DNA from: Escherichia coli
Lineage (GTDB): Bacteria > Pseudomonadota > Gammaproteobacteria > Enterobacterales > Enterobacteriaceae
Assembly: GCF_048403405.1 (NCBI RefSeq)
Contig: NZ_CP183129.1
Reading direction: 5' to 3' (one strand)
DNA length: 64,000 nt
This document shows, piece after piece, positions 43,201 through 49,200 of the stretch. Made by a program: the position numbers. The first letter of the stretch is position 1, and every line of letters begins with the position of its first letter.

Positions 43201-46200
43201 GGTACAGTAGCGGAAATTGGCTGGCGAATTACCAAGATTACGACTTTTGATAATCGTCCGTTGTACGTACCGAACTCGCTGTTTTCGTCAATCAGCGTAG
43301 AAAACCCAGGACGAATGACCAACCGGCGCATTACCACGACCATTGGTTTACGTTATGAGGATGCGGCAAAAGTGGGCGTTATTGTCGAAGCCGTACGTGA
43401 GATGCTGAAAAACCACCCGGCCATTGACCAGCGACAAACCTTACTGGTTTATTTCAACCAGTTTGCTGACTCCTCATTGAATATTATGGTTTATTGCTTT
43501 ACCAAAACCACGGTATGGGCTGAATGGCTTGCTGCACAGCAAGACGTTTATTTGAAGATTATCGATATTGTACAGTCACACGGCGCGGACTTTGCCTTCC
43601 CCAGCCAGACGCTGTATATGGATAACATTACACCGCCGGACCAGGGTCGCTAAATCAGACATCACTGGCGTTATCCACAAGGGTAACGCCAGTTCCCATC
43701 ACATCAATGCTTCACAATATACATAGTCCGACTGTACGCCACATCTTCCGGGTTATTAATGGGATAACCTTTCAGCCACGGCTTGATTAATCGTCCATTG
43801 GTATATTGATAAATTGGTGCAATCGGTGCTTGCTCCATGAGGATTTTTTCTGCCGTATTGTAATCGGCATTACGCGCTTTAACGGTATTTTCCGTTGATG
43901 CCTGGGCCAGTACTTTGTCGTATGCCGGATTGTTAAAGCGTGAAATATTCCCTGAATGCGTTGACGTTAACAACGTAAGGAAAGTGGAGGGTTCATTATA
44001 ATCCCCTACCCATGAGGCGCGGATAACATCAAAATTGCCGGTGTTACGGCTATCGATATAGGTTTTCCATTCCTGATTCTGCAATTTAACATCTACGCCA
44101 AGGTTCTTTTTCCACATCGATGCTACAGCAATCGCAATTTTTTGATGGTTTTCTGAAGTGTTATACAAAAGCGTCAGCTTCAGCGGTTTTTGCGGACCAT
44201 AACCAGCTGCGCTCAACAAAGTTTTTGCCTGCGCATTCAGTTCTTCCTGACTCATTTGTTCAAACGGCGAAGGCTCCGGCGTAAAACCGGCAGTAACATC
44301 TGGTGTAAAATGCCACGCTGGCTTTTCCCCCGTCCCCAACACTTTTTCGGTCATCAGGCGGCGATCTATCGTCATACTTAATGCCAGGCGAACACGCTGA
44401 TCGGCCGTCGGCCCTTTTTGCGTGTTAAACGCATAATAATAGGTCCCGAGCTGCGGCGGCGTATAAACCTGCCCCGGAATATCCTTCAACAGCTTCTGAT
44501 ACATATTTTTCGGGAAGGATTCGGTGATATCAATATCCCCCGCGAGATAACGCTTAGTGGCTGCGGATTCCTGATTAATTGGCAGGAAGGTCACTTTTTG
44601 CAGTACCGTTTTGGCGTTATCCCAATAATGGGTATTCGGCACCACGACCAGTTTTTCATTGACTATGCGCTCTTTAAGAACATAAGCGCCATTGCCGATC
44701 AGATTTCCGGGTTTCGTCCACTCTTTACTGCTTTCTACGTTGGCTTTTTGCACTGGGAAGAAGGCAAAGTTAGCGGTTAAATTCACAAACCACGGCAACG
44801 GTTTATCAAGCTGGATTTTCAAAGTATGGGCATCAACTGCGGTGACGCCAAGCTGGTCAGGCGTGGCTTTACCATCAATAATCGCCTGTGCGTTGTTAAT
44901 TCCCGCCAGCGCGGCAAACCATGCAAATGGCGACAATGTTTTTGGGTCCACCAGACGTTGCCAGCTGTAGACAAAATCTTGCGCCGTTACCGGTGTGCCA
45001 TCCGCCCATTTTGCGTTATCGCGCAGGGTAAAAGTCCAGATACGGTTGTCATTACTTTTCCACTGAGTCGCAACGCCGGGGACAATCTCCCCTTTCTCGT
45101 TCTGATTCACCAGTCCTTCAAACAGATCGCGAATGACCTGAATCTCCGGCAGGCCCACGGCTTTAGCGGGATCCAGAGACGCTGGCTCATCTTTAATGTG
45201 GCGCACCAGCTCCTGCTTCTCTGCCAGTACTGTGCCGCTCGGAACTTCAGCAGCATACGAAAGAGAAATGCTGCTGACCAACAGCGCACAACACGTGACT
45301 GAAACAGAGTGCTTCATAAGTTTCCCTCTAACCGACATTAAAATTGATGCGTAATTATTTGTTTCGCCTTAAAGAAATGCAAACAACTTCCATCAAAAAA
45401 GTGACAAAGGAAGCATCAAATGTTTTAAGTATCAATATATCAAATCAGATTTAGTGTAAATAATAGTCTCCAAAATGCGGTAAAGCACATAGAACTCCGA
45501 ACACTACGTTCGGGCTTCGCACGTTCAAACCCGTTTTCGGTATCATAATCAGCATCTGTCGCCATTGTACGAAGAATAAAAAATGACCAAAACGTTGAAA
45601 GGAACTGAGAATACGTTAAGAGAAGAATTAAATTAATGTATCAGCAAGTAGTGCTAAACAGCACCTTTATACTTCAGCCTATCTATAAATAATGAGAATG
45701 CCGAGCCAGCATGTCGACGGTGTGGATAGTACAGGTGATAACCGGGTAAATCTGGTGTGAATTTATCCAAAACACGTATCAGTTTTTTTTCTTTAATAGC
45801 CCGCTCAACTTGATCATAAGGTAGATACGCCAATCCATGCCCATCAATTGCAGCATCAATGATCAGGTCTATCGTATTCAGTAAAAGCTGACCTTCCATG
45901 CGAACACGAACTTCACGTCCACCGCGTATTAATCTCCAGCGATTTGCTGTACCCGATGTGGGAAGATACAAATTAATTGCCTGATGATCTATTAATTGTG
46001 ACACTGACGTTGGAGCACTTCGACGAGAAAAATAATCCGGTGAGCCAACAATAGCCATTGGTATATCTGGCCCGATTCGAATGGCGATCATATCTTTATC
46101 CATCTCCCCACCCAGACGGACGCCTGCATCAAAACGTTCAGAAACGACATCGGTCAAACCATAATCAATGGTAAGCTGGATATCAATTTCAGGATGCGAT

Positions 46201-49200
46201 TTCAGGAATGTGCGCATAGCTGGTAACAATATCGTTTTTGCTGCATGTTCTACAGTAGTAATACGTATTGTCCCGGATGGGCGGTTCTGCAGATCGCTCA
46301 GGGATGTCAGGGCAGAATCTATGTCATGCAACATAGGGCCAAGAACAGACAAAAGATGCTCGCCCGCTTCAGTGGGTACAACGCTGCGCGTGGTTCGCGT
46401 CAGAAGCCGCAATCCCAATCGTTCTTCTATACGGCGCACTATCTGGCTTAAAGCTGACTGCGCCATGCTCAGGCGGGCTGCTGCGCGAGTGAAGCTACGC
46501 TCCTCTGCAACGACGACAAACGCCATCAGATCAGCGATTTCTTCACGCTTCATTCAGTATCTCCATACAATCTATTAATCATTTAAATGATAGGTCTAAT
46601 CATAATTTAGGGTCTAATCAACTTAATGATCAATATCTATAGTGATATCACCAACCGTCAAAACGAACCGACAACTCCATGAGGAACGGAATGATGAATA
46701 ATAAAGTCAGCTTCACTAACAGCAATAATCCAACCATCTCTTTGTCTGCAGTGATCTATTTCCCTCCAAAATTTGATGAAATCCGTCAGTATCCGGCAAT
46801 TGTGGTATCTCACCCAGGTGGGGGCGTTAAAGAGCAAACGGCTGGAACCTATGCCGAAAAACTGGCGGAAAAGGGATTTGTCACTATTGCTTATGACGCA
46901 TCTTATCAAGGTGAAAGCGGCGGCGAGCCGCGTCAGTTAGAAAACCCATACATTCGTACTGAAGACGTCAGTGCCGTGATTGATTACCTGACAACGCTTT
47001 CTTATGTCGACAATACCCGAATTGGTGCGATGGGAATTTGTGCCGGTGCAGGATATACAGCCAATGCTGCAATTCAGGATCGCCGCATCAAGGCCATCGG
47101 TACTGTTAGTGCGGTCAATATTGGTTCGATGTTCCGTAATGGTTGGGAAAACAATGTGAAATCTATTGATGCCCTACCATACGTTGACGCGGGTTCAAAC
47201 GCCCGAACCAGCGATATTAGTAGCGGAGAATACGCCACTATGCCACTGGCACCAATGAAGGAGTCCGATGCGCCGAACGAAGAACTGCGTCAGGCCTGGG
47301 AGTATTACCACACCCCTCGCGCGCAGTATCCAACAGCACCGGGTTACGCTACTTTGCGCAGCCTTAACCAGATTATTACCTATGATGCTTACCATATGGC
47401 GGAAGTGTACCTGACTCAGCCGATACAGATTGTGGCGGGCAGCCAGGCAGGGAGCAAATGGATGAGTGACGACCTGTACGATCGAGCATCAAGCCAGGAT
47501 AAACGCTATCACATTGTTGAAGGCGCAAACCATATGGATCTTTATGACGGCAAAGTCTATGTGGCTGAAGCAATTTCAGTATTAGCGCCGTTCTTTGAGG
47601 AAACTCTGTAATGAAACATATTCAAATCCGCAATAGTGATATGGCCTGGCATATTACTGCCAATAATCTGGGAAAAGTTTCATGAAAAATGTACTGATTC
47701 TTGGTGCTGGCGGTCAGATAGCCCGCCATGTGATTAATCAACTGGCAGATAAACAAACCATTAAACAAACTTTATTTGCCCGTCAGCCAGCAAAAATCCA
47801 CAAACCCTATCCCACTAATAGCAAGATTATTATGGGGGATGTACTGAATCATGCAGCACTGAAGCAGGCCATGCAGGGACAGGATGTTGTGTATGCCAAC
47901 CTTACGGGGGAAGATTTAGATATTCAGGCAAATTCAGTGATCGCTGCGATGAAAGCCGGTGATGTTAAACGTCTGATCTTTGTTCTTTCCCTCGGTATTT
48001 ATGATGAAGTTCCAGGAAAATTTGGCGAATGGAATAATGCAGTTATTGGTGAGCCCCTAAAACCATTCCGCAGGGCTGCGGATGCAATTGAGGCTTCTGG
48101 ACTGGAATATACAATTCTTCGCCCTGCCTGGCTGACTGATGAAGATATTATTGATTATGAGCTTACCTCACGCAATGAACCATTCAAAGGTACGATCGTA
48201 TCACGTAAGAGTGTCGCTGCATTAATTACAGATATCATCGATAAACCTGAGAAACACATTGGTGAGAATATAGGCATCAATCAACCCGGGACTGATGGTG
48301 ATAAGCCATTCTTCATGTAAATCAATTATATAGCTACCATCGTACTGTACTATGTGCAGTACGATTTATTAAACTTATTAAGGTGAACTGATCAATCAGA
48401 TGCGATTAACATGTGTAGAACCAGTAAGAATAAAATACGCCATGTATATAACATTACGACAATTCTAATATCTGCACATCAATGAAAATGCAAACAACTT
48501 CCATCAAAAAAGTGATACAAGATCGATAACATAGCGTTGAAGAAAAGGATTTGATAATCCGCAAAATTTGCACAACACTGCCTGTAATACTTCCTGAACC
48601 AGAGACGATCATGACCGTAACTCGCCCACGCGCCGAACGCGGCGCATTTCCGCCCGGAACAGAACATTACGGACGTTCATTATTGGGCGCGCCGTTAATC
48701 TGGTTTCCGGCCCCTGCAGCCAGTCACGAAAGTGGTTTGATTCTGGCTGGCACTCACGGTGATGAAAACTCTTCGGTCGTCACGCTCTCCTGTGCTCTGC
48801 GGACGTTGACACCGTCTTTGCGCCGCCATCATGTGGTGCTGTGTGTGAATCCTGACGGCTGCCAGTTGGGGTTACGGGCCAATGCTAATGGTGTGGATTT
48901 AAACAGAAACTTTCCGGCGGCGAACTGGAAGGAAGGTGAAACCGTTTATCGCTGGAACAGCGCCGCTGAAGAACGTGATGTCGTATTGCTGACAGGTGAC
49001 AAACCTGGCTCCGAACCTGAAACCCAGGCGCTGTGCCAGCTTATACACCGCATTCAACCCGCCTGGGTGGTCTCATTCCACGATCCGCTGGCCTGTATTG
49101 AAGATCCCAGACACAGCGAATTAGGCGAATGGCTGGCCCAGGCGTTTGAATTGCCTCTGGTAACCAGCGTCGGTTATGAAACGCCTGGCTCTTTCGGCAG

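Follow-up and report, generated by a model that had tools for sequence, protein, structure and literature searches.

The subject of this study is a pair of identical 30-nt elements in Escherichia coli, found in a 64,000-nt (64-kb) stretch of contig NZ_CP183129.1 (assembly GCF_048403405.1) that is referred to here as the window. The element, AAATGCAAACAACTTCCATCAAAAAAGTGA, occurs as an exact match on the + strand at 45375-45404 (copy 1) and at 48486-48515 (copy 2), in direct orientation. The two copies lie between the divergently transcribed genes mppA and mpaA, one upstream of each, and they were originally predicted to be either a shared cis-regulatory site or a small mobile or duplicated element. 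Here, we describe the locus, compare it with the same locus in related genomes, and trace the origin and the later behavior of the two repeats.

The repeat pair and its surroundings

The gene map of the region combines a listing of open reading frames (ORFs) with the RefSeq annotation of E. coli strain 4621, whose record is identical. The mppA gene occupies 43704-45317 on the - strand with its start at 45317, and mpaA occupies 48611-49339 on the + strand with its start at 48611. Copy 1 therefore lies 58-87 nt upstream of the mppA start and copy 2 lies 96-125 nt upstream of the mpaA start, exactly as the original prediction had placed them; the 30-mer has opposite orientations relative to the two genes because these are divergent. 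The LysR-type regulator gene pgrR (45654-46553, - strand; ORF and RefSeq annotation) lies between the copies, as had been pointed out, and is accompanied there by the annotated alpha/beta-hydrolase gene ycjY (46691-47611, + strand) and by an intact annotated gene for a short-chain dehydrogenase/reductase (SDR)/NmrA-like oxidoreductase (47682-48320, + strand).

No third copy of the 30-mer is present in the window even when 3 mismatches are allowed, and no match arose in 100 shuffles that preserved dinucleotide composition. The exact pair is thus confirmed. A gapless extension of the pair into its flanks reaches only 37 nt at 92% identity, and beyond this the flanks are unrelated, as first reported. 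The copies enclose 3,081 bp (45405-48485), which are hereafter called the cassette and consist of a queH-like gene fragment, pgrR, ycjY, the SDR gene, and a non-coding right end of about 165 nt. Outside the copies, 57 nt separate copy 1 from mppA (45318-45374, - strand) and 95 nt separate copy 2 from mpaA (48516-48610, + strand).

An empty site with a single copy of the repeat

The mpaA neighborhood was taken from one genome per species in 80 species, and the proteins of the window were placed on these loci. In 76 of the 80 species-representative loci, mppA and mpaA are adjacent divergent neighbors. These 76 species include Escherichia albertii, E. whittamii, and three further Escherichia lineages as well as members of Citrobacter, Enterobacter, Leclercia, Lelliottia, Kluyvera, Kosakonia, Pluralibacter, Raoultella, and other genera. 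The sole Escherichia outside E. coli that carries pgrR-ycjY between mppA and mpaA among the 80 loci is strain E1V33 (locus L005). Within E. coli itself, the cassette is absent between mppA and mpaA in 168-173 of 5,426 complete genomes.

When 45318-45404 of the window is joined to 48516-48610, that is, when the cassette and one of the two copies are left out, a spacer of 57 + 30 + 95 = 182 nt is obtained. This joined sequence is collinear with, and equal in length to, the spacers of five cassette-free Escherichia lineages, the length of 182 nt being matched in loci L003, L004, L006, L007, L008, and L084; both the mppA-proximal 57 nt and the mpaA-proximal 95 nt are collinear with these empty-site spacers. 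In every cassette-free species, one 30-mer homologous to the repeat is present, and it lies about 96 nt upstream of mpaA. On both sides, the similarity to the empty site ends at the first base inside the insert, so that the repeats directly abut it. The existence of an empty site with one copy, together with the exact sum of 182 nt, leads to the conclusion that the two 30-mers are, with high confidence, a duplicated target flanking a 3,081-bp cassette inserted into the old mppA-mpaA control region. The locus has all the features expected of a target duplication: the repeats are direct and adjoin the insert, relatives have the uninterrupted site with a single copy and with lengths that add up, and the insert is foreign. 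The suggestion of a duplicated element thus holds, in the form of a target duplicated on each side of an insertion. No earlier description of this insertion was found in the body of literature that was searched. The pair is an insertion scar in a well-known locus, ordinary in kind, and does not represent a new type of biology.

Content and foreign origin of the cassette

The cassette has a GC content of 0.439 as compared with 0.50 for the window. The GC content at third codon positions (GC3) is 0.39 for pgrR, 0.47 for ycjY, and 0.36 for the SDR gene versus 0.51-0.56 for the surrounding genes mppA, mpaA, ycjG (49314-50279, - strand), and tpx (50398-50904, + strand); on the other side of mppA lies ynaI (42622-43653, + strand). 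The YcjY protein is 82-86% identical to proteins of Pluralibacter, Rhizobium, Agrobacterium, Mesorhizobium, Sphingomonas, and Burkholderia. This identity is unusually high across classes and points to a recent wide horizontal spread of the LysR-hydrolase module.

In Pluralibacter and in one metagenomic genome, two alpha/beta-hydrolase genes follow a divergent LysR gene, and such a LysR gene lies beside the hydrolase genes in all module relatives found. The full module, comprising a LysR gene, two hydrolase genes, an NmrA-like SDR gene, a second SDR gene, and an old-yellow-enzyme gene, is present in genomic islands of Citrobacter koseri and Klebsiella aerogenes beside replicase, AlpA, or Pycsar-type defence genes, while the core of LysR gene, two hydrolase genes, and SDR gene also occurs on Klebsiella and Rhizobium plasmids. 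Between the stop codon of pgrR and a point about 75 nt 3' of the stop codon of the SDR gene, the cassette shares 79% DNA identity with the module relatives. Judged from GC3, from the relatives of YcjY, and from the modules on islands and plasmids, the cassette is foreign DNA.

The insert of the window is shorter than the one that originally entered. A second alpha/beta-hydrolase gene lies between ycjY and the SDR gene in O157:H7 (locus L085, 3552-4483, frameshifted) and in strain CFSAN027343 (locus L095, 3652-4584), and likewise in all module relatives of other genera. About 0.9 kb, corresponding to this gene, has been lost from the ycjY-SDR gap of the window (47612-47681). Since O157:H7 and CFSAN027343 retained the gene, the original insert measured about 4 kb.

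At the left non-coding end of the insert lies a queH-like gene fragment (45464-45556, - strand) with the translation DADYDTENGFERAKPERSVRSSMCFTAFWRL. The NCBI Prokaryotic Genome Annotation Pipeline (PGAP) labels the homologous 93 nt as 'epoxyqueuosine reductase QueH, incomplete', an internal fragment, in two E. coli records; an NCBIfam search with the overlapping 41-aa ORF (45440-45565) gave no match, so the queH assignment is that of PGAP alone. The fragment suggests that queH was located downstream of pgrR in the donor. The immediate donor was not found among the relatives searched, since those in Pluralibacter, Citrobacter koseri, and Klebsiella aerogenes and on plasmids leave 250 nt at the left end (45405-45653) and about 90 nt at the right end (48398-48485) of the insert unmatched. 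The insert stops part-way through the longer gene cluster of these relatives. No recombinase gene is annotated in the 7-kb region, and the termini of the insert have no terminal inverted repeats. A search of 50,697 phage records with the 182-nt empty site returned only a 21-nt chance match. Because there is no recombinase gene, there are no terminal inverted repeats, and the left end carries a gene fragment, the insert is probably an arbitrary piece of donor DNA rather than a discrete mobile element. Just 3' of the SDR stop codon, a 12-bp inverted repeat with a hairpin-like arrangement (ATCGTACTGTAC...GTGCAGTACGAT) is located at 48339-48365; it has no T tract and was not called by the terminator scan.

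Further alleles of the cassette genes were seen in individual strains. In the porcine E. coli strains ETEC6333 and ETEC6334, ycjY is interrupted by insertions of IS3-family insertion sequences (IS). FDAARGOS_144 (locus L083, 811-1552) has lost an internal segment, so that the remainders of pgrR and ycjY are fused, and both the N-terminus of PgrR and the divergent spacer between the two genes are gone.

The duplicated target as part of a predicted ancestral promoter region

Conservation was assessed in an alignment of 77 mppA-mpaA spacer sequences. The mean conservation of the 30-mer is 0.80 as compared with 0.66 and 0.64 for its flanks, and it is concentrated in two blocks, GAAATGCAAA at the left end and AAGTTGAT at the right end, with a variable middle that includes the three positions (ATC or GGC, see below) at which the two copies commonly differ. 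Near mppA, the block GCGTAATTATTTGTTTC (45349-45365) is at least 95% conserved. On the other side, ATTTGATAATCC (48549-48560) and TTTGCACAACACTG (48567-48580) are the mpaA-proximal conserved blocks, and ATTTGATTA and TTTTGCACAACACTG were also read as conserved blocks near mpaA in this alignment.

A sigma-70 promoter of mppA is predicted at 45354-45383 on the - strand from a consensus scan and from conservation. Its -35 box, TTTGCA (45383-45378), lies inside copy 1 and is separated by an 18-nt spacer from the -10 box, AATAAT (45359-45354), which falls within GCGTAATTATTTGTTTC; both predicted hexamers are in blocks that are at least 95% conserved. Copy 1 also holds an A/T tract upstream of the predicted -35 box on the - strand. 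On this prediction, the 30-mer would span roughly positions -28 to -57 relative to the mppA transcription start. The promoter scan returned one sigma-70-like site on the mppA strand at copy 1 and none around copy 2. The placing of the 30-mer in regulatory DNA by the original prediction is in this sense borne out, the 30-mer being a piece of what would be the ancestral divergent promoter region, with the predicted mppA -35 box. Copy 1 would keep the predicted mppA promoter whole, with its -35 box and its upstream A/T tract, and copy 2 would be a redundant relic upstream of the conserved mpaA-proximal blocks. These blocks (48549-48580) are nearly invariant in the Enterobacteriaceae spacers aligned, and no sigma-70 promoter is predicted there; they may represent a candidate regulator binding site or a non-canonical promoter.

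Divergence and exchange between the two copies

The 30-mer of the window is present in 4,932 of the 5,426 complete E. coli genomes at 4,992 places in all, so that at most about 60 genomes can have two exact copies. A variant with GGC in place of ATC at positions 18-20 occurs once in each of 3,714 genomes. In the 12 cassette-bearing E. coli alleles that were read, ATC belongs to copy 1 in 12 of 12, and GGC went with copy 2 in every allele read; in the lineage of the window, copy 2 reads ATC like copy 1. The right junction of the ATC type is matched at 100% in 32 genomes and at 99% or more in 71. In all, matching copies are present in only about 60-70 genomes. The copies drift apart in most strains, and perfect identity is the state of a minority lineage.

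Position 18 is G in the outgroups, with GGC in three of the five Escherichia empty sites and GTC or GGT in the other two, and both copies of strain E1V33 read GGC. It follows from the outgroup G and from the GGC/GGC state of E1V33 that GGC is ancestral and that ATC arose in copy 1. Further changes are found in individual strains: copy 1 of O157 has a 1-nt deletion and one substitution, copy 2 reads AAATACAAAC in O157 and ATCC 25922 and CAATTTCC in FDAARGOS_144, and copy 2 of FORC_069 has a 1-nt insertion. In SMS-3-5, copy 2 is chimeric (AAATACAAAC...ATC), that is, it combines the copy-2-specific A at position 5 with ATC. In strain 873.10 (O18ac:H14; locus L099, 5984-6870), an IS1-associated deletion removed the SDR gene and copy 2 and left mpaA and the mpaA-proximal conserved blocks intact. 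The ATC/ATC identity in the lineage of the window probably, although by no means certainly, stems from short gene conversion from copy 1 to copy 2. As a separate observation, the mpaA annotation of ATCC 25922, a reference strain in wide use (locus L094, 4652-5380), is that of a pseudogene interrupted by an internal stop codon.

Precise loss of the cassette and the K-12-type deletion

A query spanning the empty site identified 173 E. coli genomes with adjacent mppA and mpaA, and a 114-nt empty-site query identified 168. About 150 of these empty sites are of the GGC type, for example in a strain named ST648 and in MS6198, ECONIH1, and LR-62-2, and at least 14 are of the ATC type or within one mismatch of it, for example in SCU-172, PT62, and CP131_Sichuan. 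The sequence around the ATC-type empty site of CP131_Sichuan agrees with K-12 without a mismatch for 1,300 nt to the left and for 1,500 nt to the right; in SCU-172, the 1,500 nt to the right of the site agree in the same way with SMS-3-5, and the empty site of PT62 lies in a third background. The empty sites in these three backgrounds are precise deletions in situ and not imported alleles, and precise loss has thus occurred at least 3 times. The crossovers fall on either side of the ATC/GGC mismatch, within identity runs of 17 nt or 11 nt.

A different deletion is widespread. The K-12-type deletion lacks 665 bp, corresponding to 47821-48485 of the window (about 4724-4740 of the K-12 locus L002), and truncates the SDR gene to ymjD/ymjC. 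As a result, YmjC of K-12 consists of the first 46 residues of the SDR protein followed by 14 residues encoded by copy 2 and the right flank. The same junction is shared by H10407, FORC_069, BS-04, and Escherichia sp. E1V33, and the deletion is carried by roughly 2,500 genomes, about 2,500 of the 5,416 genomes with a match being without an intact SDR region. Because all examples have a single shared junction, the K-12-type deletion is one event. The ends of the deletion have only a 1-nt overlap as microhomology. The cassette is decaying in several independent ways, as the IS1 element with its adjacent deletion and the IS3-family insertions show.

A model of the insertion and the points that weigh against it

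The proposed sequence of events can be outlined as follows. The E. coli ancestor would have had mppA and mpaA as divergent neighbors with a 182-nt spacer and one copy of the 30-mer. A foreign fragment of about 4 kb, with the queH remnant, pgrR, the two alpha/beta-hydrolase genes, and the SDR gene, would then have entered this spacer and left the same 30 nt of it on each side. The duplication might have arisen when a break whose ends were offset by 30 nt was repaired, or by the single-crossover (Campbell-type) integration of a circle that shared 30 nt with the spacer; both routes fit, and the mechanism is one that we infer. After the insertion, mppA and mpaA each retained their own part of the old control region. 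Since then, the repeats have served as short direct repeats for the precise and, in E. coli, recurrent loss of the cassette, and they have now and then exchanged sequence, copy 2 of the window most likely having gained the derived ATC of copy 1.

Several points weigh against this model or parts of it. The direction of the change, as insertion and not as repeated loss, is supported by parsimony and by the foreignness of the cassette rather than by an observed event. The length of 30 bp far exceeds the duplications of 2-14 bp made by known transposases, and a recombinase gene, terminal inverted repeats, and a matching phage attachment site were all looked for and not found. The 665-bp K-12-type deletion ends within 1 nt of the left edge of copy 2, which the model does not explain; that this endpoint falls at the edge of the repeat may be due to chance, with odds of roughly 1 in 100. 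The ATC/ATC state could also be the original one, resulting from an insertion into an ATC allele, with copy 2 replaced later in most lineages. Finally, a residual role of copy 2 at mpaA may exist, although natural variation argues against a strong one.

Alternative explanations

The first alternative concerns the mode of insertion. The 30-bp duplication could be the signature of an uncharacterised integration route, with staggered cuts of about 30 nt or a recombination core of 30 bp, that acts at a preferred site in the spacer. The same spacer holds another islet of about 3.1-3.4 kb between mppA and mpaA in Salmonella enterica subsp. arizonae (locus L022, 4848-8000) and diarizonae (locus L025, 4562-8000). 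This islet encodes a subunit of the CdtB-family cytolethal distending toxin (NF011787, E = 1e-113) and two flanking secreted proteins. In the diarizonae locus, similarity to the ancestral spacer resumes inside the equivalent of the 30-mer, while GCGTAATTATTTGTTTC was not found beside mppA in either Salmonella islet locus. Simple chance insertion does not account for the Salmonella cdt islet, the K-12-type endpoint, or the way in which the cassette is repeatedly and precisely lost, and these three observations hint at a spot prone to recombination; a dedicated route of this kind is nevertheless considered unlikely.

According to a second alternative, the 30-mer is an operator of PgrR or of another regulator, and its two copies have been selected to co-control mppA and mpaA. 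In its favor, both genes act in murein-peptide recycling with pgrR located between the two, and conserved parts of the ancestral spacer extend into the 30-mer. The single ancestral copy would have belonged to a divergent promoter region, where a shared site is conceivable. The variation described above tells against it: the copies are unlike in most E. coli, with ATC versus GGC, point changes, and single-base indels, copy 1 is altered in O157 and copy 2 in O157, ATCC 25922, FDAARGOS_144, and FORC_069, and mpaA is intact in 873.10, from which copy 2 has been deleted. PgrR arrived with the cassette and cannot explain the conservation of the element in the 76 cassette-free species, where pgrR-like matches occur in three loci only and at just 27-50% identity; the conserved left end of the 30-mer is accounted for by the predicted mppA -35 box.

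Evidence on where PgrR binds points in the same direction. The regulon list obtained by genomic systematic evolution of ligands by exponential enrichment (SELEX) names ycjG, ycjXF-tyrR, and ycjY-ymjDC-mpaA; at this locus, that list gives the ycjY/ycjZ spacer, and mppA is not among its entries (PMC5934670). Autoregulation of PgrR through a site in its own promoter is reported to have been independently confirmed (PMC10505187). The operators of LysR-type regulators are T-N11-A dyads, and the 30-mer resembles them in being located upstream of genes and near a LysR-family gene. It differs from them in having no dyad symmetry, its one T-N11-A match (TTCCATCAAAAAA) being without inverted half-sites, and the site given in the SELEX list here is in the spacer between pgrR and ycjY. 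The longest word that the 30-mer has in common with this spacer is 6 nt, which is the level of chance. The spacer itself (46554-46690) contains a perfect 14-bp palindrome, ATCATTTAAATGAT, at 46578-46591, followed by two direct copies of GGTCTAATCA at 46593-46602 and 46611-46620, and this region appears to be a far better candidate than the 30-mer for the published PgrR site. A co-selected operator pair is therefore very unlikely, and the shared cis-regulatory site of the original prediction is not supported, given copies that differ, a copy 2 that is mutated or deleted in some strains, the lack of a dyad, and a SELEX entry that lies elsewhere at the locus.

A third alternative reverses the direction of change: the cassette and its flanking repeats would be ancestral, and the other lineages would each have lost them. 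Within E. coli, the repeats do mediate precise loss, so that loss elsewhere is mechanistically possible. However, an ancestral cassette would have to be lost in each of the 76 species, in more than 15 genera, and to leave the same spacer layout each time; it is also at odds with the deviant GC3 and with the fact that the closest relatives of the cassette are plasmid- and island-borne modules in unrelated contexts. This explanation is highly unlikely.

The repeat could also be read as the start of a small protein, MQTTSIKKV..., encoded by two paralogous short ORFs of 25 codons from 45377 and 15 codons from 48482. Both copies indeed have an ATG and an open frame, and in K-12 this frame forms the C-terminus of the annotated YmjC, although K-12 YmjC is a fusion made by deletion. 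The two ORFs are alike over no more than the 9 codons that fall within the repeat and have nothing in common after these, and no Shine-Dalgarno sequence precedes either ATG. Across genera, the frame is broken by indels and early stops (8-10 codons remain in Enterobacter), and the conservation of the 30-mer in two blocks with a variable middle is not codon-like. The coding reading is extremely unlikely, and a small ORF in the repeat was rejected on the cross-genus alignment.

That the 30-mer is a dispersed repeat or a miniature mobile element, of the repetitive extragenic palindromic (REP), enterobacterial repetitive intergenic consensus (ERIC), or miniature inverted-repeat transposable element (MITE) kind, has a likelihood close to nil: nothing besides the repetition itself is in its favor, either variant occurs at no more than 2 places per genome in the 5,426 complete E. 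coli genomes with all fetched examples at this locus, the 30-mer does not fold into a hairpin (0.0 kcal/mol on one strand and -2.3 kcal/mol on the other) and has no match in Rfam, and other species have one copy at the orthologous position. The genome-wide search for further copies proposed with the original prediction thus revealed no scattered copies, and the small mobile element is rejected.

Other candidates were considered and set aside. A structured RNA was rejected, as Rfam gave only a sub-threshold RAGATH-10 match inside pgrR and the 30-mer does not fold. A terminator was rejected, as no terminator-like site lies over copy 1 or copy 2. For a transposon, neither a transposase gene nor terminal inverted repeats were found and the duplication is 30 bp long, and for a phage attachment site, the spacer was found in no phage of the 50,697 records; both were rejected. 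With regard to an integrase island, precise excision was found, but no recombinase in the 7-kb region and no attP.

Relation to known systems

The locus shares features with three known systems. Target duplications by DDE transposases are typically 2-14 bp. As with such target-site duplications, direct copies of host sequence abut the insert here, relatives have a one-copy empty site, and the lengths add up; unlike them, the duplication is 30 bp long, there is no transposase, terminal inverted repeats are lacking, and the left end carries a queH fragment. Islands and prophages flanked by attL/attR similarly have direct repeats of tens of bp around acquired DNA and are precisely removed, as the cassette has been in about 3% of E. 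coli genomes. They differ in that the cassette has no integrase or excisionase gene in or beside it, that its target is an intergenic promoter and not a tRNA gene, and that both ATC and GGC deletion products occur here, with crossovers on both sides of the mismatch. Crossovers on both sides are expected of homology-driven and not of site-specific exchange. Deletion and gene conversion at short homologies provide a parallel for the later history, since repeats of 11-30 bp give both precise deletion and patch-wise homogenisation, as seen in the empty sites, in SMS-3-5, and in this window; this parallel covers the behavior of existing repeats and not their creation.

Implications

These findings alter the reading of a much-annotated E. 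coli locus and have a bearing on the interpretation of PgrR. The repeats show, in a clean natural setting, a target duplication of unusual length, and repeats of 11-30 bp drive both precise deletion and patchy homogenisation here. PgrR, which is named as the regulator of peptidoglycan recycling, is on this evidence a newcomer brought by a plasmid-type module of LysR gene, two hydrolase genes, and SDR gene that landed by accident amid the mppA-mpaA control region. The home function of PgrR is probably the control of its own module, and the only PgrR site at this locus in the SELEX list is its own divergent spacer. The K-12 'ycjY-ymjD-ymjC-mpaA operon' is the product of this insertion and of a later deletion. 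Precise loss of the cassette has affected about 3% of complete E. coli genomes, ST648-type strains among them, and about half carry the truncated form. Since the cassette varies in this way across strains, regulation derived from K-12 need not hold species-wide.

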